From Chloroflexi bacterium CSP1-4 (GTDB lineage: Bacteria > Chloroflexota > Limnocylindria > Limnocylindrales > CSP1-4): 64,000 nt of DNA. Both the position numbers and the translations under genes were made by a program. Shown here one piece after another: positions 1 to 8,023 of this stretch. Below the pieces are notes generated by a model. It saw only the letters and a program-made list of their open reading frames with translations, did no database searches and was not told where the DNA came from. Every line of letters begins with the position of its first letter. The first letter of the stretch is position 1. The stretch spans positions 42-64,041 of the forward strand of contig LDXM01000014.1 in assembly GCA_001443375.1 (NCBI GenBank), written 5' to 3'.

Positions 1-1
1 G

Positions 2-565
2 GCCTTCGGCAAGTACGCGTTCGCGCGCCTCGTGGTCATGGACCCCCACGCCTACAACGCCTTCCGCAACCACTACCCGCGGCTGGGCTGGACGGGCGAG
101 GTGCTGCACTACACGCAGTTCCTCGCCGAGCACGTCGAGCGCATCGCCTGGCGCTCCCGCGTGGACCTCGAGGTCACCTACCACGACCCGTGCTACCTCG
201 GGCGCAACAACGGCGAGTACGACGCGCCGCGCAAGCTCCTCGCGGCGATCCCCGGCGTGCGCCTCGCCGAGATGCCCCACAACCGGGCCAACGGCTACTG
301 CTGCGGCGGTGGTGGCGGGGGCATGTGGCTCGACGGCTTCGTGGCCGAGCACGTCTCGGAGCGCCTCTCCGAGCGGCGCGTGCGCGAGGCCGTGGCCACG
401 GTGGGCACCGACGGCAGCGGGGTGCTCTCGGTGGCCTGCCCCTACGAGCCGTCGCGCTTCGAGGACGCGGTGAAGTCCACCGGCAACGACGGCCGCATCG
501 TCGTGCGCGACATCATCGAGCTGATCGACCAGGCGATGCAGCCGCTGCCCGCCACAACGGCATGA
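2..565 (+). CDS. CCG-domain (HdrB/HdrD/GlpC-like) Fe-S oxidoreductase, C-terminal part (5'-truncated by window edge)
   Basis: Frame open from base 2; motifs YHDPCYLGR, CCGGGGG, SVACPYE typical of cysteine-rich CCG domains. Confidence 0.85.
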   Translation, partial: AFGKYAFARLVVMDPHAYNAFRNHYPRLGWTGEVLHYTQFLAEHVERIAWRSRVDLEVTYHDPCYLGRNNGEYDAPRKLLAAIPGVRLAEMPHNRANGYCCGGGGGGMWLDGFVAEHVSERLSERRVREAVATVGTDGSGVLSVACPYEPSRFEDAVKSTGNDGRIVVRDIIELIDQAMQPLPATTA

Positions 566-578
566 ACGAGGAGGACCC

Positions 579-1343
579 ATGGAACTGGTCGTACTGGTCA
601 AGCAGGTGCCCGATCTCGCCGAGGAGCTCGAGATCGACGCCTCCGGCACCGACCTCGCCCGCGAGTGGATGAGCTTCGTGGCCAGCGAATGGGACGAGTA
701 CGCCCTCGAGGAGGCGCTGCAGCTGCGCGACGAGGCCGGCGGTCGCGTGACCTGCCTGGCCCTCGACACCGGGTCGGTGGACGAGCTGCTCGCGACCTGC
801 CTGGCTCGCGGCGCCGATCGCGCCGTCAAGGTGGGCGCCTTCGAGCGCGGGCCCGACTCGCACACCGCCGCGCGGGCCTTCGCCGCCGCGCTGCGCACGC
901 TGCCCCACGACCTCGTGCTGACCGGCGTGCAGGCCATCGACGACCTCGACGGCCAGGTGGGCCCGCTGGTGGCCACCGAGCTGGGTCTGCCCCATGTCAG
1001 CGTCGTGACCCACATCAAGCTCGCGGGCAGCGCGGCCACGGTCCACCAGGAGTACGCCGGCGGCCTCGTGGCCGAGTTCGAGGTCGACCTGCCGGCGGTG
1101 CTTGGCGTCCAGACCTCGCGCGAGGCGCCGCGCTACGCGCCCGTCAGCCGGGTGCGCCAGATCATGAAGACCGCCGAGATGGAGCAGGTCGACGTCGCGG
1201 TCGCGGCCGGCTCCGGGTTGACGATCGAGGCCATGAGCGTGCCGGAGACGGGACGCGCGGCGGAGATGATCGCCGGCAGCCCCGGGGCGGTGGCCGACCG
1301 GATCGCCGCCATCCTCCGCGAGCGCGGCATCGTGAAGGCGTAG
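579..1343 (+). CDS. etfB: Electron transfer flavoprotein beta subunit
   Basis: N-terminal VLVKQVPD, DEYALEEALQL, LARGADRA, GVQAIDDLDGQVG, PRYA; SD GAGGAGG upstream. Confidence 0.95.
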   Translation: MELVVLVKQVPDLAEELEIDASGTDLAREWMSFVASEWDEYALEEALQLRDEAGGRVTCLALDTGSVDELLATCLARGADRAVKVGAFERGPDSHTAARAFAAALRTLPHDLVLTGVQAIDDLDGQVGPLVATELGLPHVSVVTHIKLAGSAATVHQEYAGGLVAEFEVDLPAVLGVQTSREAPRYAPVSRVRQIMKTAEMEQVDVAVAAGSGLTIEAMSVPETGRAAEMIAGSPGAVADRIAAILRERGIVKA

Positions 1344-1352
1344 GGGAGACCG

Positions 1353-2315
1353 ATGAGCAACGACATCTTCGTCCTGGTCGAACACCGCGACGGCGCCGTC
1401 GCGGAGAGCGCTTACGAGCTGCTGGGTCGGGCTCGGGAGCTGGCTGCCGCCACCAGCGGGGCGGCCGTGGCCCTCGTAGCCGGCGCGGCCGCCTCCTTGC
1501 TCGCCTCGCAGCTGGGCGCCGCCAGCCGCGTCATCGCCGTCGAGGACGCCTCGCTGGCGGAGTTCACGCCCGCGGCCTGGCAGGCCGCGCTGGCGCCGCT
1601 CATCGCCGAGCGGCAGCCGCTGCTACTGCTCGTCCCCAACTCCGGCTCGGGCATGGACGTGGCCGCAGGCCTTTCCGCGGCCACCGGCCTGCCCCTCGCC
1701 GCGTACGCCGTGGACGTGGCCATCGCCGGCGGCTCGCCGACAGTCACCTGCCAGCTCTACGCCGGCAAGATCAACGTCCGCGTCCGTTTCGACGGCGGTC
1801 GCGGCATCGCCACGGTCGTCGCCGGCGCCTTTCCCGCCGCGGCCGGCCAGGCGGCCGGTTCGCCGGCCGTGGAGCGCGTCGCGCCGGCCGCCGCCGACGC
1901 CCGGATCCGCTTCCGCCGCCTCATCCGACCCGAGGCGGGCGGCGTGGACATCACCAAGGAGTCGATCCTCGTCTCGATCGGGCGCGGCATCGGCGAGGCC
2001 GACAACGTGGAGCTTGCCGAGCGGCTGGCGGCGGCGCTGGGCGGTGCCGTCTCCTCCTCGCGTCCGGTGGCCGACGCGGGCTGGCTGCCGCGGACACGCC
2101 AGGTCGGCAAGTCCGGCCTGCGGGTGAAACCGAAGCTGTACCTCGCGCTCGGTATCAGCGGCGCGCCGGAGCACCTGGAGGGGATGCGCGACGCCGAGCT
2201 GATCGTGGCCGTCAACACGGACGCGCACGCACCGATCTTCGGTGTCGCCCACTACGGGGCGGTGGCCGACATCCTCGAGGTCATGCCGGCGCTGACCCAG
2301 CGCCTGGGCGGCTGA
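1353..2315 (+). CDS. etfA: Electron transfer flavoprotein alpha subunit
   Basis: LVSIGRGIG, SSRPVAD, QVGKSG..VKPKLYLALGISGAPEHLEGM, AVNTDAHAPIF FAD-binding domain. Confidence 0.95.
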   Translation: MSNDIFVLVEHRDGAVAESAYELLGRARELAAATSGAAVALVAGAAASLLASQLGAASRVIAVEDASLAEFTPAAWQAALAPLIAERQPLLLLVPNSGSGMDVAAGLSAATGLPLAAYAVDVAIAGGSPTVTCQLYAGKINVRVRFDGGRGIATVVAGAFPAAAGQAAGSPAVERVAPAAADARIRFRRLIRPEAGGVDITKESILVSIGRGIGEADNVELAERLAAALGGAVSSSRPVADAGWLPRTRQVGKSGLRVKPKLYLALGISGAPEHLEGMRDAELIVAVNTDAHAPIFGVAHYGAVADILEVMPALTQRLGG

Positions 2316-2328
2316 GCTCCCGGCCCAG

Positions 2329-4635
2329 ATGTTCGACCGGTCGGTCACGCGGGAGGTCTTCGAGGGGCTCGGCACCGCCGGCGAGGTGGTCTTCTACCTC
2401 CTGACCCTGCTGGTCACGATCGTCTTCTTCGTCGGCCTGGGGCTCAAGGTGCGCAAGTACCTCCGGGGCCGCGCCGAGGATCGCTTCCGGCCGCCGGCGG
2501 ACTTCGTCCAGAACGCCCTCCGCGGCCTGATCTCGGCCGCCACGGGGGCCACGGTGGCCAAGCGCGACCGCTTCGCGGGCGTCTTCCACCTGGCGGTCAT
2601 GTGGGGCTTCGTGGTGCTCTTCATCGGCACCGCCATCCTCACCATCGAGACCGACATCGTGGGCATCTTCGCCCCGCAGTACCGCTTCTTCCACGGCACC
2701 TTCTACATCGTCTATTCGGTCATCCTCGACGTGCTCGGGCTGGTCATGATCGTGGGCCTCGTGGCGCTCGCCGTGCGGCGGGCGCGCTTCCGCAAGCCGG
2801 CCCTCGACTACGGGCGCGTGGACCTCGAGGGCGCGACCACGAACCGGGGAGGCTTTGCCGTCGGCGACAGCGTCTTCCTGGGCTGGCTGCTCCTGCTGGG
2901 CATCGGGGGCTTTCTCGTCGAGGCGCTGCGCATCGTGGCCCACGACTTCCCCTGGTTCGAGGTCTGGTCCCCCGTCGGCTGGGTCCTGGCCGGCCTCTTC
3001 AGCACGCTGGGGCTGGGCGCCGAGGTCGCCGGCTCGCTGCACCTCGTCTTCTGGTGGGGCCACGCGCTCATGGCGCTGGCCTTCGTCGCCTACATCCCCT
3101 TCGCCAAGGCGATCCACATGCTGACCGCCGGCGCGAACCTGGCGCTGCGCTCGCCGCTCGCCGGTCGGCGCCTGCCGGTCCTGCCGGCGACATCCGTCGC
3201 CGCCATCGCGGGCCTGGCCGCACCGGTCGTCGCCGATGGCCACGTCGGGCTGCGTGACCTGGCCGACTTCTCCTGGAAGCAGCTGCTCGACTTCGACGCC
3301 TGCACGAAGTGCGGACGCTGCCACGTGGCCTGCCCGGCCGTCGCCTCGGGTGCGCCCCTCTCGCCGCGCGACCTCATCCTCGACCTGCGCCAGCAGGCGG
3401 ACGCTGCCTGGGCGATCCTGGCGCCGGGCGCTGAGCAGCGCAGCGACCGCGTCTACGGCGACGGCGTCGCGGCAGCCGCGGCGACGAACGGCAACGGCGC
3501 GGGACCGGCCCCCTGGGAGCCGACCCCGCCCGGGCCCGGCGGCCTCATGGCGGGCGGCCTCATCAAGGCCGACACGCTCTGGTCGTGCACGACCTGCCTG
3601 GCCTGCGTCGAGGCCTGCCCGGTCGGCATCGAGCACGTGCCGGCCATCGTGGGCATGCGCCGCTCGCTCGTGGACCTGGGTATCGTCGAACCCGGCCTGC
3701 AGACGGCCTTCACGAACCTGGCCAAGCAGGGCAACTCCTTCGGGCAGTCCGGCCGCACCCGTGGCCGGTGGAGCGACGGCTTGCCGGTGCCGGTCCGCGA
3801 CGCCCGCCGCGAGTCCGTGGAGTGGCTCTGGTTCGTGGGCGACTTCGCCTCCTTCGACGTGCGCGTGCAGGAGGCGACCCGCCTCGTGGCGCGCGTCTTC
3901 CAGGAGGGCGGCCTCGACTTCGGCATCCTCTTCGACGGCGAGCGCAACGCCGGCAACGACATCCGCCGCGCGGGCGAGGAGGGGCTCTTCGAGGTCCTCG
4001 CCGAGCACAACATCGGGCAGCTCTCCAAGGCGCGCTTCAAGCGCATCGTCACCACCGACCCGCACACGCTCAACACGCTGCGCTTCGAGTACCCGCAGTT
4101 CGGCGGCGACTTCTCGGTGTGGCACTACAGCGAGCTGCTGACGTGGCTGTTCAAGCAGGGCCGCCTCAGCGCTGCCAGCCCGGTCGCCCGGCGCGTGACG
4201 TACCACGACCCCTGCTACCTGGCCCGCTACAGTGAGGTCACGCGTGCCCCGCGCGAGGTGCTGGCCGCGGTCGGCGCGGAGCTCGTGGAGATGCCGCGCA
4301 ACGGCGCCAACACGTTCTGCTGCGGCGCCGGTGGCGGGCGGATCTGGATGGACGACTCGGGCCTCCGCGAGCGCCCCTCGGAGAACCGGATCCGCGAGGC
4401 AGCGGCGCTCGAGGCGGTGACCGACTTCGTGACCGCCTGCCCCAAGGACCTCACGATGTACACCGCGGCGGCCAAGGCGACCGGCCACGGCGACCGGCTG
4501 GCCGTGATCGACTTGGTCGAGCTGGTGGCCCAGGCGATCGGCCTGCCGGACGAGGTCCCCGCCGAACCCGAGGCGGCGCCCGAGGTCGCGGCATTGGCCA
4601 CCTCTGGGGCCCCCTCTGAGGCCGCCGTGGCATGA
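2329..4635 (+). CDS. Membrane-bound Fe-S oxidoreductase (NarI-like TM/heme b domain + two [4Fe-4S] + CCG domains); FadF/EMO-type ETF:quinone oxidoreductase
   Basis: Several N-terminal TM helices with His residues; CTKCGRCHVACP and CTTCLACVEACP ferredoxin motifs; C-terminal YHDPCYLAR and CCGAGGG; directly follows etfBA. Confidence 0.88.
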   Translation: MFDRSVTREVFEGLGTAGEVVFYLLTLLVTIVFFVGLGLKVRKYLRGRAEDRFRPPADFVQNALRGLISAATGATVAKRDRFAGVFHLAVMWGFVVLFIGTAILTIETDIVGIFAPQYRFFHGTFYIVYSVILDVLGLVMIVGLVALAVRRARFRKPALDYGRVDLEGATTNRGGFAVGDSVFLGWLLLLGIGGFLVEALRIVAHDFPWFEVWSPVGWVLAGLFSTLGLGAEVAGSLHLVFWWGHALMALAFVAYIPFAKAIHMLTAGANLALRSPLAGRRLPVLPATSVAAIAGLAAPVVADGHVGLRDLADFSWKQLLDFDACTKCGRCHVACPAVASGAPLSPRDLILDLRQQADAAWAILAPGAEQRSDRVYGDGVAAAAATNGNGAGPAPWEPTPPGPGGLMAGGLIKADTLWSCTTCLACVEACPVGIEHVPAIVGMRRSLVDLGIVEPGLQTAFTNLAKQGNSFGQSGRTRGRWSDGLPVPVRDARRESVEWLWFVGDFASFDVRVQEATRLVARVFQEGGLDFGILFDGERNAGNDIRRAGEEGLFEVLAEHNIGQLSKARFKRIVTTDPHTLNTLRFEYPQFGGDFSVWHYSELLTWLFKQGRLSAASPVARRVTYHDPCYLARYSEVTRAPREVLAAVGAELVEMPRNGANTFCCGAGGGRIWMDDSGLRERPSENRIREAAALEAVTDFVTACPKDLTMYTAAAKATGHGDRLAVIDLVELVAQAIGLPDEVPAEPEAAPEVAALATSGAPSEAAVA

Positions 4636-5093
4636 GCGCGACCGTCGAGCCGGACGCGTACCGGGTGCTGGAGGCGCTGGCCGTGAACCTGCGCGCCCGC
4701 GTGCGCGAGCAGCGACGGGCGGAGGAGCGCCTGGCGGGCTTCGCCTTCCGCGAGAGCGGGGCGGCGGTCGGGTCGGTGGAGTCTGGCGCCGCGCCCGCGA
4801 CCGATTGGCGCTACTACCTCGCCCGCACCTTCCGCGAGGCATCGGAGCCGTCGACCCTCGCCCTCCTGCTGAGCCTGCGCTCCGGCGAGCGGCCGCTGCG
4901 GGAGCTGGGCGAGGACCATCTTGCCGTGGCCGACCAGGTGGGACGCCTGGCCACGGCCGGCCTGGTCTCGCGCCCCCTCGACAGCGAGCGGGTCTCGCTG
5001 GCGCCGCTGGGCGAGGCCGTGCTGGCGCTGTACGACGCGCTCGAGGCGCGCCTCAGCGCGGGCCCCGATGGGGACGGGAGACCGGTTCGGTGA
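4632..5093 (+). CDS. Hypothetical protein with winged-helix-like C-terminal half
   Basis: ATGA overlap with upstream gene; pattern LALLLSLRSGERPLREL...QVGRLATAGLVSR...SLAPLG resembles wHTH regulators. Confidence 0.65.
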   Translation: MSATVEPDAYRVLEALAVNLRARVREQRRAEERLAGFAFRESGAAVGSVESGAAPATDWRYYLARTFREASEPSTLALLLSLRSGERPLRELGEDHLAVADQVGRLATAGLVSRPLDSERVSLAPLGEAVLALYDALEARLSAGPDGDGRPVR

Positions 5094-5416
5094 ACTGCCC
5101 CTACTGCGCCGCGCCCGGCACACGCATGGAAACGCACGCCCACCTCGGGACGGATCATGCCGACCAGGTGCGCATGTTCCGCGACGAGGCCAAGGACCAG
5201 GCCCGCTTCGCCCTGGGCTGCCCCTTCTGCGACGAGGGCCTGGAGCGCGTGGCCAACCCGCGCGGGCGCGAGCCCGGGTTCCTCGAGGAGTTCCGGCGCG
5301 AGATCACGCTCGTCGCTTTCGACCTCCTGCTCTACCATCTTCACGCGTCTCACGCCGAGCTTGTGGGGCTTCCGGCGATCCCCGTGGACGAGCCCACACC
5401 AGGAGAGACGAGATGA
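5090..5416 (+). CDS. Small double Zn-finger-like protein (CPYC..HAHLGTDH; CPFC..HLHASH)
   Basis: GTG start overlapping upstream TGA; 3' part of ORF 4805..5416; two CxxC plus two His clusters; ATGA overlap with next gene. Confidence 0.75.
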   Translation: MNCPYCAAPGTRMETHAHLGTDHADQVRMFRDEAKDQARFALGCPFCDEGLERVANPRGREPGFLEEFRREITLVAFDLLLYHLHASHAELVGLPAIPVDEPTPGETR

Positions 5417-5850
5417 CCGACGTCCGTGGCTGCAACATCCCCGAAGACCTGTACTACTGGGTGGAGAAGCACGTCTGGGTCCGCGACGACGGCGACGACG
5501 TCGTCACCGTGGGCATCACGGACGTGGCCCAGCACCTCGCCAACCGCGTCGTGGCCGTGACCACGAAGCGCCCGGGCAAGCTCCTCGAGCGGGGCCAGAG
5601 CGTGGCCACGGTCGAGAGCGGGAAGTGGGTCGGCCCGGTGCCCACGCCGATCAACGGCGAGGTCCTGGAGGTCAACCCCCGCCTCGCGAGCGAGCCGACC
5701 ATCGTCAACGACGATCCCTACGGCGAGGGCTGGATCGTCCGCCTCAAGGCGACCCTCTGGTCCGTCCAGCGGGCGGAGATGCACACCGGCGTCCATGCCG
5801 TGGACGAATACCGGGCCTTCCTCGAGGCCCAGGGGATCAGCTGCGCCTGA
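5413..5850 (+). CDS. lbpA: GcvH-like lipoate-binding protein (LbpA-type) 1
   Basis: ATG 5413 after SD AGGAG; HVWV, VGITDVAQ, lipoyl-Lys motif VESGKWVG, NDDPYGEGW; extra Cys near both termini (RGCNIP, ISCA). Confidence 0.85.
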   Translation: MTDVRGCNIPEDLYYWVEKHVWVRDDGDDVVTVGITDVAQHLANRVVAVTTKRPGKLLERGQSVATVESGKWVGPVPTPINGEVLEVNPRLASEPTIVNDDPYGEGWIVRLKATLWSVQRAEMHTGVHAVDEYRAFLEAQGISCA

Positions 5851-6302
5851 TGAGCGTCTACCGGGGCTGCGACATCCCTGGCGACCTGTTCTTCGACGTG
5901 GACCGCGACGTGTGGATCCGGCCCGCGCCGGACGGCACGCTCACGCTGGGCCTGACCGACCCGGCCCAGACGCGCTCCGGCAAGGTCCTGCACATCCTCT
6001 TCAAGAAGCCCGGCCGCCACCTCGACGCCGGGCAGAGCGCGGCCACCATCGAGACCGCCAAATGGGCCGGCCCCTTCCCGACGCCCGTGTCCGGCACGAT
6101 CGCCGAGACGAACGAAGCGACCTTCCGGGCCGACATCCTGATCGCCAACCGCGATCCCTACGGCGCGGGCTGGATCGTGCGGCTGGAGCCGGATGAATGG
6201 GCGCCCGAGGCGCAAGGGCTGGTCACGGGGGAGGCCGCCGTGCAACGCTACGAGACCCGCATCGACGAGCTGGGCCTGAACTGCTTCCGCTGTGCCGACT
6301 GA
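5850..6302 (+). CDS. lbpA: GcvH-like lipoate-binding protein (LbpA-type) 2
   Basis: ATG 5850 (TGATG overlap); LGLTDPAQ, lipoyl-Lys motif IETAKWAG, NRDPYGAGW; terminal Cys (RGCDIP, NCFRC). Confidence 0.85.
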   Translation: MSVYRGCDIPGDLFFDVDRDVWIRPAPDGTLTLGLTDPAQTRSGKVLHILFKKPGRHLDAGQSAATIETAKWAGPFPTPVSGTIAETNEATFRADILIANRDPYGAGWIVRLEPDEWAPEAQGLVTGEAAVQRYETRIDELGLNCFRCAD

Positions 6303-6312
6303 GGAGCCGACC

Positions 6313-7401
6313 ATGACCGCCTCGCCCATCCGCCTGCTCGACCTGGCGCCGGTCTCGCCGCTGCGCTCGCAGACGATCTACCACGCCGTCGGCTACGCCC
6401 TGGGGGCCGACTCGCCCGACACGATCATGCTCGTCTCGCCGAACGCGCCATACGTCAGCATCGGCCGTCACCAGGACGCCGCCCGCGAGGTGGACCTACC
6501 CTACTGCGCCGAAGCCGGCTACCCGGTGATCCGGCGCGAGATCGGCGGCGGTGCCGTCTACCTCGACGGCAACCAGCTCTTCACGCAGTGGATCTTCCAT
6601 GCCGACCACCTGCCGGCCACCGTCGAGGAGCGTTTCGTCGTCTACGCCGACTCCCTGGTGAGGACGTACCGTGCCTTGGGCATCGCGGCCGAGCACCGGC
6701 CGATCAACGACATCCACGTCGCCGGGCGCAAGATCGGCGGCACCGGTGCCGCACGCATGGACGGCGCCGAGGTCGTCGTGGGCAGCCTCATGTTCGACTT
6801 CGACGTGGCGACCATGGCGCGCGTCCTTAAGGTGCCCAGCGAGAAGTTCCGCGACAAGATCATCCAGTCGCTGACCGACTACATGACCACGATGCGCAAG
6901 GAGCTGGGCGAGCCGCCGGCGCGCGAAACCGTCATCGCGGCCTACCTCGATGCCTGCCGCGCCGTCCTGGGCCGCGACATCGAGCGCGGCGAGCTGCGCG
7001 CCGACGAGCTGGCCCTGGCCGAGAAGCTCGACGCCCGCTTCGCCGGCCGCGAGTGGCTCGAGGAGGCCGGCGGGCTGCGCAAGCCGTTCGTGAAGATCCA
7101 CGAGGGCGTGCGCGTGGCCGAAGCGGCCCACAAGGCGCCCGGCGGGCTGATCCGCTGCGTGCTCCGCGTACGCGACGGCCACATCGACGACGTCGCTTTC
7201 TCGGGCGACTTCACTGCGCGGCCGCCGTCCATGCCGTTCGACCTCGACGAGCTGCTGGCAGGGAGCGAGATCTCAGAGAAGATGGTATCCGAGAAGATCG
7301 AGGACTACTATCGGCGGGTGCGGCCGGAGATCCCGGGCGTGGCGCCGAGCGACTGGGTCGCCGCGGTGATGCGAGCGGCCGAAACGGAAGCGCCGGCCTG
7401 A
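6313..7401 (+). CDS. lplA: Lipoate-protein ligase (catalytic domain + C-terminal accessory domain, LplA/sLpl(AB)-like)
   Basis: VSIGRHQD, RREIGGGAVYLD, NDI..GRKIGGTG, C-terminal HKAPGGLIR..FSGDF; SD GAGGAG before ATG 6313. Confidence 0.9.
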   Translation: MTASPIRLLDLAPVSPLRSQTIYHAVGYALGADSPDTIMLVSPNAPYVSIGRHQDAAREVDLPYCAEAGYPVIRREIGGGAVYLDGNQLFTQWIFHADHLPATVEERFVVYADSLVRTYRALGIAAEHRPINDIHVAGRKIGGTGAARMDGAEVVVGSLMFDFDVATMARVLKVPSEKFRDKIIQSLTDYMTTMRKELGEPPARETVIAAYLDACRAVLGRDIERGELRADELALAEKLDARFAGREWLEEAGGLRKPFVKIHEGVRVAEAAHKAPGGLIRCVLRVRDGHIDDVAFSGDFTARPPSMPFDLDELLAGSEISEKMVSEKIEDYYRRVRPEIPGVAPSDWVAAVMRAAETEAPA

Positions 7402-7411
7402 GCCCGGCGAC

Positions 7412-8023
7412 ATGGAGGTGGCACAGATGGTCCAGGCATCCGAAACCATGACCGGCGCGGGCGATCTCGACGCCCTCATCCGCGACCGCGTCGATGCGCT
7501 CGTCACGACCCGCGTCGACGAGCTGATGGCGCTCGAGGCGGCCAGGAAAGCCGCCAAGCCCAAGAAGCTGTCGATCATCGCCACCAAGGGCACGCTCGAC
7601 TGGGCCTACCCGCCGCTCATCCTGGCCACGACGGCCAAGACCCTGGGCTGGGAGGTCGGCATCTTCTTCACCTTCTACGGGCTGAAGATCCTGCAGAAGA
7701 AGCGCAACCTCGAGGTCGGCACCACGGGCAACCCGGCCATGCCCATGCCGATCACCATGCCCCAGCTCATGACCGCCCTGCCCGGGATGACCCCGATGGC
7801 CACCTGGATGATGAAGCGCCAGTTCAAGGATCACGGCGTGGCCTCCATCGACGAGCTCCTCGACCTGGCCGTGGAGATGGGCGTCAAGCTCATCCCATGT
7901 GGCATGACCATGGACGTCTTCGGCTTCAGCAAGGACGGGTTCATCGACGGCATCGAGCCGGTCTGCGGCGCGACGCACTTCCTCGACTGGGCCTCCGACT
8001 CGGACGTCTCGCTCTTCGTCTGA
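7412..8023 (+). CDS. DsrE/DsrF-family (DsrE2/DrsE_2-like) sulfur transferase
   Basis: KLSIIATKGTLDWAYPPLILA, IFFTFYGL, conserved Cys in IPCGMTMDVFG; exact start uncertain (several Met). Confidence 0.88.
   Translation: MEVAQMVQASETMTGAGDLDALIRDRVDALVTTRVDELMALEAARKAAKPKKLSIIATKGTLDWAYPPLILATTAKTLGWEVGIFFTFYGLKILQKKRNLEVGTTGNPAMPMPITMPQLMTALPGMTPMATWMMKRQFKDHGVASIDELLDLAVEMGVKLIPCGMTMDVFGFSKDGFIDGIEPVCGATHFLDWASDSDVSLFV

Follow-up and report, generated by a model that had tools for sequence, protein, structure and literature searches.

A probable type II sHdr-LbpA sulfur-oxidation gene cluster, with two small conserved companion genes, in a Limnocylindria bacterium

Gene content and likeness to type II sHdr

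Positions 2–8023 of the window (the whole 64,000-nucleotide stretch of DNA analyzed here) very probably form the distal half of a sulfur-oxidation system of the type II sHdr-LbpA kind, carried by a soil bacterium of the Limnocylindria (Chloroflexota), an assignment that draws on directly observed gene content, homology, conservation of cofactor ligands, and synteny. The ORF list, together with Pfam and NCBIfam matches, places ten genes on the + strand of this segment, separated by 9–13 bases or otherwise overlapping by 1–11 bases, a spacing as in one operon. All ten are present as originally predicted, and the same sources bear out the prediction of a tightly packed, co-directional series free of gcvP, gcvT, and 2-oxoacid dehydrogenase genes; acyl-CoA dehydrogenase and E1/E2 genes are likewise absent from 2–8023. 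From 8061 onward the genes are unrelated, encoding an SHC-like repeat protein, a HAD hydrolase, an ABC ATPase, and PPDK.

The series begins with the 3′ part of shdrB3 (2..565, 187 codons; PF02754, 49.6 bits), encoding a fused HdrC2/HdrB2-like Fe–S subunit with one CCG domain. It ends with a gene for a DsrE2-type sulfur carrier (7412..8023; DrsE_2 PF13686, 166.5 bits), which scores 209.9 bits against a cut-off of 210 for NCBIfam DsrE2 (NF047629) and likewise comes last in related loci. Chloroflexota loci with long flanks repeat a single order and strand, tusA-dsrE3-shdrC1-B1-A-H-B3-etfB-etfA-emo-g5-g6-lbpA-lbpA-ligase-dsrE2; B3 lies upstream in all 54 related loci with at least 7.5 kb of flank 5′ of emo, and both etfB and etfA are found in 68 of the 70 with at least 2 kb.

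The original prediction, which took these genes for the 3′ half of an ETF- and membrane-oxidoreductase-containing sHdr-LbpA cluster, matches the published type II sHdr arrangement, shdrC1B1AHB3-etfAB-emo, for which a definition and a proposed role of EtfAB and EMO are available (Tanabe et al. 2024, PMC11094781; PMC11582611) and which was earlier named 'Group III' (Cao et al. 2018, PMC6067878). As far as the available text of these sources describes it (PMC11094781; PMC6067878), type II sHdr-LbpA has the same genes in the same order—the fused one-CCG B3, etfB, etfA, and emo—and shares with this genome two Cys-bearing LbpAs, a ligase, TusA, and DsrE-type carriers. The best relative of the emo protein, at 95% identity, belongs to a Candidatus Limnocylindria MAG, in keeping with the predicted Chloroflexota origin, and this host phylum matches that of many published type II assemblies. 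Nothing about the lineage is unusual, since most type II assemblies in that survey come from Chloroflexota, Actinobacteriota, and Bacillota (PMC11094781). The earlier statement that the lineage is not one associated with sulfur oxidation was therefore overstated, Chloroflexota being a main type II host, as was the description of the system as uncharacterized: type II sHdr has been named and surveyed in print, though without biochemical study. The cluster is an ordinary member of the described type II sHdr, plus two small conserved genes, g5 and g6.

Type I sHdr (shdrC1B1AHC2B2; Hyphomicrobium denitrificans, Thioalkalivibrio, Aquifex) shares with this genome the core A, B1, C1, and H subunits, and also, according to the available descriptions (PMC11094781, PMC6067878), LbpA dependence, a dedicated ligase, and TusA/DsrE carriers. 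It differs in having separate C2 and B2 subunits in place of the fused B3, and in lacking etfAB and emo, both of which are present here.

The shdr core and its possible linkage to the electron-exit genes

The Hdr-like and sulfur-carrier genes expected upstream of the window's genes were found on another contig of the assembly (C30), and such genes precede etfBA in each of the 54 sufficiently flanked loci. C30 carries tusA, a dsrE-type gene (dsrE3), shdrC1, shdrB1, shdrA, shdrH, and a complete, 435-residue B3 with a Fer4 dicluster and one CCG domain. The product of 2..565 matches the C-terminal end of that B3 with 99.5% identity across 201 residues, and the last 610 bases of the C30 B3 gene are 99.18% identical to the first 610 of the window's contig. 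Following B3 on C30 are a phosphoesterase gene, sat, and aprBA (AprB, 200.7 bits; AprA, 953.3 bits), with QmoAB-like genes also near the core, which together with Sat and AprBA make up a complete route from sulfite to sulfate.

The published type II rule places shdrC1B1AHB3 and etfAB within one syntenic cluster (PMC11094781). Unlike the published systems, this genome shows B3 in two contexts, and a single syntenic cluster is unproven in this assembly, because the window's contig begins inside shdrB3 and because the complete B3 on C30 is followed by phosphoesterase-sat-aprBA and not by etfB; both points count against the assignment. On contigs from three other public runs, the end of B3 runs directly into the start of etfB.

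Both contexts may be real. In a functional type II system with a split layout special to this genus, two B3 copies would belong to two operons, one ending the core operon ahead of phosphoesterase-sat-aprBA-qmoAB and the other heading the etfBA-emo-lbpA series of the window. We regard such a layout as a serious possibility, at somewhat less than even chances; if it is true, the window would hold a self-contained module for electron exit and lipoate, and not the end of a single long operon. The 3′ end of B3 occurs in both contexts not only within this MAG but also in G007, an independent MAG from this genus, where two contigs (C90, C206) lead into the phosphoesterase gene and a third (C187) into etfB, and the etfB contig starts inside B3 in both MAGs. 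In a family-level relative (G008), the order runs unbroken through B3-etfB. Summed contig depth of B3 in four runs is about 2–3 times that of either flank (shdrH/A or the phosphoesterase gene), although depth in Logan contigs is explicitly no copy number; this is a weak hint, suggesting a second B3 copy that lacks a second core upstream. In three of the four runs, moreover, a contig that terminates at the B3 stop codon carries a loose end continuing into etfB, and at least one further contig extends only 29 letters into the phosphoesterase gene (the bar for bridging being 31). Against this, two co-occurring strains with different layouts would yield identical contigs, and no contig reveals the upstream side of the second B3 copy.

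Electron-transfer and lipoate-binding proteins

The dedicated electron transfer flavoprotein is encoded by etfB (579..1343; PF01012, 91.8 bits), its small subunit, and etfA (1353..2315; PF00766, 105.2 bits; PF01012, 99.4 bits), its large FAD-binding subunit. Their best solved relatives are chains C and D of 1o94 (123.7 and 178.5 bits, respectively), and etfB shares 31–35% identity with the genome's other two etfB genes, on C3 and C6. The adjoining emo (2329..4635; PF02754, 62.1 bits; Fer4_9, 41 bits) encodes an EtfD-type membrane ETF:(methyl)menaquinone oxidoreductase with a heme-b membrane domain, two cubane [4Fe-4S] sites, and one CCG-type noncubane site. EMO aligns with the solved EtfD of M. 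smegmatis (9ojn_A) over residues 23–766 (E 3.3e-86), and shares its architecture and alignable length with mycobacterial EtfD and its relatives FadF and DgcB (PMC13083937). Both heme His, the 8 cubane Cys, and 5 of the 6 D2 ligands of EtfD are kept, among them Cys637/672/673/709 and His583 of the noncubane cluster, Cys712 being replaced by Asp in EMO and in all 80 related sequences. The linear [3Fe-4S] cluster D1, in contrast, has lost all four cysteines—to Asp, Asn/Ser, Asp, and Thr/Ser—in 81 of 81 sHdr-linked sequences (the window's and its 80 best relatives), and EMO also lacks the disordered C-terminal tail of about 30 kDa found in EtfD.

This homology raises the possibility that ETF and EMO serve fatty- or amino-acid oxidation, as FadF, EtfD, or DgcB would, that the H-like proteins belong to glycine cleavage or 2-oxoacid dehydrogenases, and that the DsrE gene is incidental. 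FadF and DgcB likewise lack the D1 cysteines (PMC13083937), and one LbpA exceeds the cut-off of a GcvH subfamily, as described below. But the genes of EMO are wired to sHdr, whereas mycobacterial EtfD is wired to beta-oxidation: the 80 best emo relatives are sHdr-linked wherever the flank permits a check, including the 54 loci with B3 upstream, rather than grouping with FadF beta-oxidation clusters. The cluster itself holds no acyl-CoA dehydrogenase, gcvT, gcvP, or E1/E2 gene, and elsewhere the genome has a canonical EtfD that keeps 20 of 20 ligands beside its own etfBA (C6), a third etfBA pair (C3), and canonical gcvT-gcvH-gcvP genes (C17). With the H-like proteins falling outside the GcvH clade and bearing LbpA cysteines, this reading is close to refuted.

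Those two proteins are encoded by lbpA copies a (5413..5850; GCV_H PF01597, 126.2 bits) and b (5850..6302; GCV_H PF01597, 92.7 bits). LbpA hallmarks, as given in the available text of a recent preprint, are the lysine together with N- and C-terminal cysteines (bioRxiv 10.64898/2026.10.01.755906), and both proteins show them: copy a has Cys7, Cys144, and the lipoyl-lysine in ESGKW, and copy b has Cys7, Cys145, Cys148, and the lysine in ETAKW. Neither protein enters the canonical GcvH clade (97/96) of the H-protein tree; both group with sHdr-linked orthologs of three phyla, copy b in a subclade of its own with 89/95 support. The predicted separation from GcvH is thereby upheld, although copy a exceeds the cut-off of the NCBIfam GcvH subfamily NF002270 (128.6 versus 117), which counts against the sHdr assignment.

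The ligase gene (6292..7401, with an alternative ATG possible at 6313) encodes a lipoate:protein ligase with a catalytic domain (LplA-B_cat PF21948, 139.2 bits) and a C-terminal domain (23.8 bits, cut-off 24), and reaches 129.9 bits for TIGR00545, under the cut-off of 280. Like the sLpl(AB)-LipS1/LipS2 pathway (PMC10332631), the cluster sets an LplA-family ligase beside LbpA substrates, but the radical-SAM partners that in bacteria are found with sLpl(AB) almost without exception (Tanabe et al. 2023, PMC10332631), and that the Type I operon carries as lipS1-lipT-lipS2, differ: neither LipS1 nor LipS2 was found in this 92%-complete genome, and a search for LipS1 across 31 genomes (this one plus 30 relatives) gave no match; canonical LipA is present (380.6 bits). 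The ligase lies within a clade of 13 cluster-borne ligases, split with 100/99 support from the LipS1/S2-adjacent ligases and from the genome's other ligase, on C7. Both results count against the assignment. The ligase groups with a second, LipS-independent ligase type, one that coexists with a LipS-adjacent ligase in Actinomycetota clusters.

What follows is inferred from the model published for type II sHdr (PMC11094781; PMC11582611), and this covers the substrate, every protein contact, and the direction in which electrons flow. The carriers TusA, DsrE3, and DsrE2 would hand sulfane sulfur on to both LbpAs, at the lipoamide arm, and also to the cytoplasmic sHdrA-B1-C1-B3 Fe–S flavoprotein complex, which would oxidize it to sulfite. 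Electrons would leave via the dedicated EtfAB, enter EMO at its single CCG-type cluster, and pass through two cubane clusters and heme b to menaquinone, while AprBA and Sat, encoded beside the core on C30, would convert sulfite to sulfate. The cluster ligase would load the LbpAs with lipoate or octanoate; as LipS1 and LipS2 were not found, the sulfur atoms of lipoate would derive from scavenged lipoate or from canonical LipA.

The LbpA-ligase-ETF-EMO module could instead serve lipoate-dependent redox chemistry with a purpose other than dissimilatory sulfur oxidation, for instance the detoxification of thiols or organosulfur compounds or the supply of electrons to a different enzyme, a kind of role reported for LbpA1-like proteins where sHdr is absent. 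An LbpA1-like protein occurs with an sLpl-LipS pathway but no sHdr in Roseovarius mucosus, according to the available preprint text (bioRxiv 10.64898/2026.10.01.755906); a third Cys-bearing H-like protein of this genome lies on C7, away from any shdr gene; and SoxB had no match above cut-off in the genome, which also counts against the type II sHdr assignment. Yet the lbpA pair stands in fixed synteny with the shdr core, DsrE2, and TusA across several phyla, and the full sulfite-to-sulfate route (Sat, AprBA, QmoAB-like) adjoins the core, making such a task improbable, if slightly less so than the fatty-acid and glycine-cleavage reading.

The g5/g6 pair

Between emo and the lbpA pair lie the two genes that extend the type II arrangement, a pair for an ArsR-fold protein and a zinc protein that is conserved across phyla and for which no naming was found in searchable literature text. 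The product of g5 (4632..5093, 153 residues) has no Pfam or NCBIfam match; its AF2 model (pLDDT 89.0) predicts a long N-terminal helix of 40 residues ahead of an ArsR/SmtB-type winged helix, and Foldseek returns SrnR (7p6f, E 3.6e-4) and then SmtB, BigR, and SqrR, with probability 1.00. The predicted fold is shared with the sulfane-sulfur-sensing repressors SqrR, BigR, and sHdrR, but g5 differs from them in its extra helix, in its lack of a family match, and in having no cysteines, whereas the Type I repressor sHdrR carries sensing cysteines. The known thiol-persulfide switch therefore cannot operate in g5 itself. Positional homologs follow emo in Chloroflexota, Gemmatimonadota, and Actinomycetota loci.

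The product of g6 (5090..5416, 108 residues) has two C2H2-type metal sites and only sub-threshold zinc-finger matches, the best being zf-Di19 (19.1 bits, cut-off 27.5). Its AF2 model (pLDDT 91.9) has no match among solved folds (Foldseek best E 0.13; VIA best Z 4.1); C3, C6, H18, H23, C44, C47, H83, and H88 are invariant in 36 sequences. Of the 63 loci that extend at least 2.5 kb beyond emo on its 3′ side, 47 carry the gene; among 31 relatives, it occurs only in the three genomes with an emo ortholog. Its position directly 5′ of the lbpA pair is conserved across phyla.

The type II sHdr cluster and its core genes

At the start of the window, ten plus-strand genes follow one another with intergenic spacers of 9-13 bases or with overlaps. 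They comprise the 3′ part of shdrB3 (B3, the fused Fe-S subunit; 2-565, truncated at its 5′ end, with a CCG domain), etfB (579-1343) and etfA (1353-2315), which encode EtfB and EtfA, and emo (2329-4635), whose product, the EtfD-type membrane ETF:menaquinone oxidoreductase EMO, combines a membrane domain with a pair of 4Fe-4S motifs and one CCG domain. These are followed by g5 (4632-5093; 153 residues, no cysteine, no Pfam or NCBIfam match), g6 (5090-5416; zinc-finger matches, all sub-threshold), two lbpA copies with GCV_H matches (copy a, 5413-5850, PF01597 at 126.2 bits; copy b, 5850-6302, 92.7 bits), an LplA-type ligase gene overlapping the end of copy b (6292-7401; PF21948, 139.2 bits) and a DsrE2-type gene (7412-8023; NF047629 at 209.9 bits, cut-off 210; Pfam DrsE_2 at 166.5, cut-off 25). 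With a G+C content of approximately 72%, the window yields many false frames when ORFs are listed mechanically; ORF calls taken together with Pfam and NCBIfam scores nonetheless support all ten genes at the positions originally predicted. Genes beyond 8061 are unrelated to the cluster.

The gene order, in which the B3 stop at 565 is followed by etfB at 579, etfA at 1353 and emo at 2329, is that required of type II sHdr. In PMC11094781, type I is defined as shdrC1B1AHC2B2 and type II as shdrC1B1AHB3-etfAB-emo, B3 being a C2/B2 fusion in which only one noncubane cluster can be bound; 130 GTDB assemblies with type II are counted there, mostly from Chloroflexota, Actinobacteriota and Bacillota. 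PMC6067878 had earlier described a "Group III" arrangement, in which Hdr-like genes occur with EtfBA and with two or three LbpAs. The original prediction of an sHdr-LbpA system was right, and the locus is of the published type II kind. Its further suggestion, that the lineage is not one associated with sulfur oxidation, does not hold, since PMC11094781 already lists Chloroflexota as a main type II host. The figures or supplementary tables of PMC11094781, such as Table S1, may already list the species. The locus adds no new principle, and the differences that emerged are modest: a distinct ligase clade and apparently LipS-independent lipoylation, the g5/g6 pair, an EMO without the D1 cluster, and a possible duplication of B3. 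To our knowledge, type II sHdr has never been tested biochemically; the model was reportedly proposed by Kuempel et al. in a BBA review of 2024.

The cluster was originally taken for the 3′ half of a longer one, with shdrC1, shdrB1, shdrA and tusA to be sought upstream. The window's contig begins 41 bases ahead of the window, inside B3, and these genes were found on contig C30 of the same genome (2.59 Mb in 65 contigs, 92.2% complete, 1.7% contaminated), ahead of a matching B3. The first 610 bases of the window's contig are 99.18% identical to C30:8340-7731, and the window's B3 fragment is 99.5% identical over 201 residues to the C30 protein, which is 435 residues long, its Fer4 dicluster lying at 58-117 and its only CCG match at 306-380. 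Ahead of it, on the minus strand, lie tusA (PF01206, 78.6 bits), a DsrE-type gene (dsrE3), shdrC1 (HdrC-like, 79.8 bits), shdrB1 (HdrB-like, 115.9 bits, with a CCG domain), shdrA (HdrA-like, 240.8 bits) and, at the shdrH position, a gene for 256 residues with no family match. The HdrA-, HdrB- and HdrC-like scores all fall under the methanogen equivalog cut-offs, as sHdr would predict. The genes from tusA through B3 form an sHdr core, and the fused C/B protein is the sHdrB3 of the literature.

Immediately downstream of B3, C30 encodes a phosphoesterase (YfcE-like), Sat, AprB, AprA and two HdrA-like (QmoA/B-like) proteins whose genes reach the contig end. C30:1-13551 (locus L003, minus strand) holds tusA-dsrE3-shdrC1B1AH-B3 and phosphoesterase-Sat-AprBA-QmoA/B-like genes, a full sulfane-to-sulfate route in one place. 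Divergent from tusA, at L003:13577-18043 on the plus strand, lie two genes. The first encodes 515 residues in which a TtrB/DsrO-like Fe-S protein is fused to an NrfD-like membrane part, and the second encodes a molybdopterin oxidoreductase of 968 residues. The oxidoreductase has its best score against PhsA (199.7 bits, below every curated cut-off), and no twin-arginine motif was seen at its start; it may be a sulfur enzyme resembling Soe, Psr or Phs. The large subunit of RuBisCO is encoded at C11:65672-66595 (451.6 bits), and no SoxB was found above cut-off in the genome. The combination of RuBisCO, sHdr and AprBA hints at sulfur-driven autotrophy, and with RuBisCO, Sat, AprBA and Qmo-like genes in this genome, the abundant soil class to which it belongs may include sulfur-oxidising autotrophs.

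The near-identical B3 3′ end (window 1-569; L003:7731-9042) thus has two contexts: etfB comes next in the window, and the phosphoesterase gene comes next on C30. An independent MAG of the same genus (G007) has the same two contexts, with the B3-phosphoesterase-Sat-AprBA order (L086, L087) and an etfB contig that likewise starts inside B3, while a family-level relative (G008) has an undivided order through B3-etfB. The published rule, as stated in PMC11094781 and PMC11582611, places shdrC1B1AHB3 and etfAB within one syntenic cluster. As regards that rule in the source genome, the window's contig starts inside B3 and the C30 B3 runs into phosphoesterase-sat-aprBA. In four soil or sediment runs, the summed Logan contig depth over B3 was approximately 2-3 times that over the phosphoesterase gene and shdrH/A; depth is not copy number, and with short Logan contigs, no piece of which spans the whole stretch, one copy and two cannot be told apart by depth. 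In three of these four runs, a contig ending at the B3 stop reads on in sequence identical to window 570-599, the start of etfB. Two copies of B3 in one genome fit these data; two strains fit somewhat less well. A search for what precedes the window's B3 found no other contig end that overlaps B3 or the end of C30.

Relatives of EMO suggest how widely this arrangement is shared. A protein scan of one genome per species gave 396 relatives, and the best 80 of these were analysed. The closest, at 95% identity, belongs to a MAG of Candidatus Limnocylindria, a class of Chloroflexota, which bears out the host originally named as probable. Among the best 80 of 396, further Chloroflexota MAGs follow at 68-76% identity, Gemmatimonadota at 56-58%, and Actinomycetota (including Amycolatopsis and Gordonia isolates), Bacteroidota, Calditrichota and Planctomycetota at 45-54%. 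When 19 query proteins were mapped onto these 80 loci with tblastn, every Chloroflexota locus with long flanks had one order and strand, tusA-dsrE3-shdrC1-B1-A-H-B3-etfB-etfA-emo-g5-g6-lbpA-lbpA-ligase-dsrE2, with the exception of one (L016) that gave no ligase match. B3 was present in every one of the 54 loci whose flank upstream of emo measures at least 7.5 kb, etfB and etfA in 68 of the 70 with at least 2 kb upstream, and g6 in 47 of the 63 with at least 2.5 kb downstream, 43 of which also have a downstream lbpA. The shdr and etfAB genes lie in one cluster in 54/54 loci with enough flank, and in G008. None of the best 80 of 396 loci has Sat or AprBA inside 10 kb of emo. Type II sHdr is widespread among the Chloroflexota, Actinomycetota and Gemmatimonadota of soils and sediments. 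In the family of the source genome its distribution is patchy: the only true EMO orthologues (identity of 74% or more) among 31 genomes are those of the source genome, G007 and G008, and the rest have a 36-41% paralogue alone. All genus members searched carry this EtfD-type paralogue, and two of the eight, counting the source genome, have the sHdr-linked EMO.

LbpA proteins and their lipoylation

A profile search of the source genome returned four GCV_H matches. One, on contig C17, is encoded between gcvT and gcvP and has no cysteine. The two proteins of the cluster have Cys7 and Cys144 (copy a) and Cys7 and Cys145/148 (copy b), and both retain the lipoyl-lysine, their ESGKW and ETAKW motifs aligning with ESVKA of the C17 GcvH. 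The terminal cysteines are absent from the C17 protein and from four canonical GcvHs of other genomes; in bioRxiv 10.64898/2026.10.01.755906, two near-terminal cysteines that are absent from GcvH are the most conspicuous feature of LbpA. Both copies score below the TIGR00527 GcvH equivalog cut-off of 115.85 (87.8 for copy a, 58.0 for copy b). Copy a does, however, exceed the looser cut-off of the NF002270 GcvH subfamily (128.6 against 117), which runs against the LbpA reading. PDB sequence searches with both proteins returned chains named GcvH only and yielded no named LbpA reference.

Comparison by phylogeny, as originally proposed, places both proteins outside the canonical GcvH clade. Its 21 rows are the four proteins of the source genome and 17 others, drawn from five genomes that span three phyla; one split gene was left out, and the tree was built without named LbpA1 or LbpA2 references. 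The canonical clade (97/96) has no cysteine-bearing member. A second group (89/86) holds both window proteins, each beside sHdr-linked orthologues from Chloroflexota, Gemmatimonadota and Actinomycetota, and a third clade (100/99) consists of cysteine-free, cluster-borne proteins of Actinomycetota and Gemmatimonadota. The fourth GCV_H match of the source genome, at C7:62840-63343 (L084), is an H-like protein 167 residues long whose N- and C-terminal cysteines are of the LbpA type. Its gene lies far from any shdr gene, in the neighbourhood of genes for a housekeeping lipoate ligase, a molybdopterin dehydrogenase and 2-oxoacid dehydrogenase E1/E2.

According to PMC10332631, bacteria that possess sLpl(AB) nearly always possess LipS1/S2 as well. 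The window's LplA-family ligase is likewise encoded beside lbpA in an shdr cluster; in contrast to the sLpl(AB)-LipS1/S2 pathway, profiles for LipS1 and LipS2 (NF053742, NF053743) gave no matches in the 92.2%-complete source genome, and its ligase falls outside the LipS-adjacent group. LipS1 gave no matches in 31 genomes (the source genome with 30 relatives), of which 14 have a completeness of at least 90%. As a positive control, an Amycolatopsis locus (L033) scored 224.2 bits for LipS1 and 188.3 for LipS2, both under the cut-offs of 230 and 270, with the two genes located between B3 and etfB. The source genome has a canonical LipA (380.6 bits) and three LplA/LipB-type catalytic domains.

In a tree of 21 ligases, composed without the experimentally studied sLpl(AB) enzymes, a split supported at 100/99 separates 13 cluster ligases, including the window's, from seven LipS-adjacent ligases and the C7 housekeeping ligase. 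The 13 comprise the window's ligase, those of other Chloroflexota and Gemmatimonadota, one from Calditrichota and a shorter Actinomycetota form. Both kinds of ligase occur in one type II cluster in Actinomycetota and in one Myxococcota-labelled MAG (L033, L031, L069, L063, L032). There, between shdrB3 and etfB, a short ligase of the window's clade follows B3 and the LipS1/LipS2-adjacent ligase is also present; these clusters hold the cysteine-free third H-protein clade as well. At least one lineage appears to run an LbpA system without the LipS1/LipS2 lipoyl synthases.

The possible accessory proteins g5 and g6

The g6 protein has 108 residues and belongs to a family of 90-110 residues. An alignment of 36 sequences, consisting of the window protein and 35 picked for spread from 52 homologues, has C3, C6, H18, H23, C44, C47, H83 and H88 invariant in 36/36, along with V75, D78, the start Met, L19 and P45. 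From this pattern, g6 is a predicted metal-binding protein with two C2H2-type sites. Searches of the PDB with its structural model (pLDDT 91.9) gave no match, the best E being 0.13 in Foldseek and the best Z 4.1 in VIA-align against 48,161 chains; this is not proof of a new fold. The protein atlas gives hypothetical clusters and an automatic "Elf1" name, which is uninformative. Among the 31 genomes, the g6 profile matches only the three with an EMO orthologue.

Many loci have a positional homologue of g5 after emo; of the 40 ORFs extracted, 27 that carry a conserved C-terminal motif were selected by eye. The g5 model (pLDDT 89.0) matches ArsR/SmtB repressors in Foldseek, including SqrR and BigR (E 3.6e-4 to 1e-2, probability 1.00, about 90 of 153 residues), and g5 is predicted to be a winged helix-turn-helix protein of ArsR/SmtB-type fold. 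SqrR and BigR are sulfide sensors. Prediction of a g5-g6 complex gave no answer (score 0.00) and has no bearing on binding either way.

The lbpA pair is accompanied across phyla by a putative zinc protein and a protein of predicted ArsR-type fold. No mention of either, including of sHdr with a zinc finger, was found in the searchable text of the literature; this text does not extend to Figure 1 and Table S1 of PMC11094781, which may already draw g5 and g6 as hypothetical. One joint reading, which we consider rather doubtful, is that g5 and g6 constitute an unrecognised accessory pair of those type II clusters in which an lbpA pair follows emo, serving as sensor and regulator, or as an LbpA assembly or docking factor, and substituting for sHdrR, the thiol-switch repressor of type I systems, and that Limnocylindria and Gemmatimonadota lipoylate LbpA without LipS1/LipS2, by way of the distinct ligase clade and LipA or scavenged lipoate.

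The membrane oxidoreductase and its ETF

EMO matches the solved EtfD of M. smegmatis (9ojn_A) with an E value of 3.3e-86. Cofactor ligands taken from PMC13083937 were mapped onto an alignment of the window's EMO with 80 relatives (the best 80 of 396). EMO shares with mycobacterial EtfD the ligands of haem b, of two cubanes and of the CCG cluster: both haem-b histidines (His87 and His263 in the window's EMO), the eight cubane cysteines (Cys325/328/331/335 and Cys420/423/426/430) and the ligands of the noncubane cluster D2 (EtfD Cys637/672/673/709 and His583; Cys629/664/665/704 and His579 in the window's EMO) are kept in 81/81 sequences. EtfD Cys712 is Asp in 80 of the 81. In contrast to EtfD, none of the 81 sequences has a cysteine in the columns of the linear [3Fe-4S] cluster D1, where Asp, Asn/Ser, Asp and Thr/Ser stand instead (Asp505, Asn540, Asp577 and Thr580 in the window's EMO). 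Because the D1 cysteines are replaced throughout and the other ligands mostly kept, the sHdr-linked EMOs represent a D1-less branch of the EtfD family. FadF and DgcB likewise have no D1 cysteines, according to PMC13083937, so the loss is not new in itself; its occurrence in every sHdr-linked EMO examined means that ETF electrons would have to enter at the single CCG cluster.

The soluble part of EMO and sHdrB3 (L003:7735-9042) are 41% identical over 342 residues, and both proteins end in a CCG domain in which the second cysteine of the last CxxC motif is lost. This similarity suggests a recent common origin of B3 and the head of EMO.

The cluster's EtfB and EtfA both score best against the 1o94 ETF (123.7 and 178.5 bits, respectively), and 4kpu and 5ol2 score lower. 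The 1o94 protein is the Methylophilus ETF, a simple ETF that partners trimethylamine dehydrogenase, and 4kpu and 5ol2 are bifurcating ETFs; the ranking could serve as a lead only on whether the cluster's ETF is simple or bifurcating. ETF groups are said to have been described by Garcia Costas et al. in 2017.

The source genome also has an EMO paralogue on contig C6 that keeps 20/20 EtfD ligands, including all four D1 cysteines. A second etfB-etfA pair adjoins this canonical EtfD at C6:73738-79137 (L090, minus strand), and a third etfBA pair lies at C3:38233-39953.
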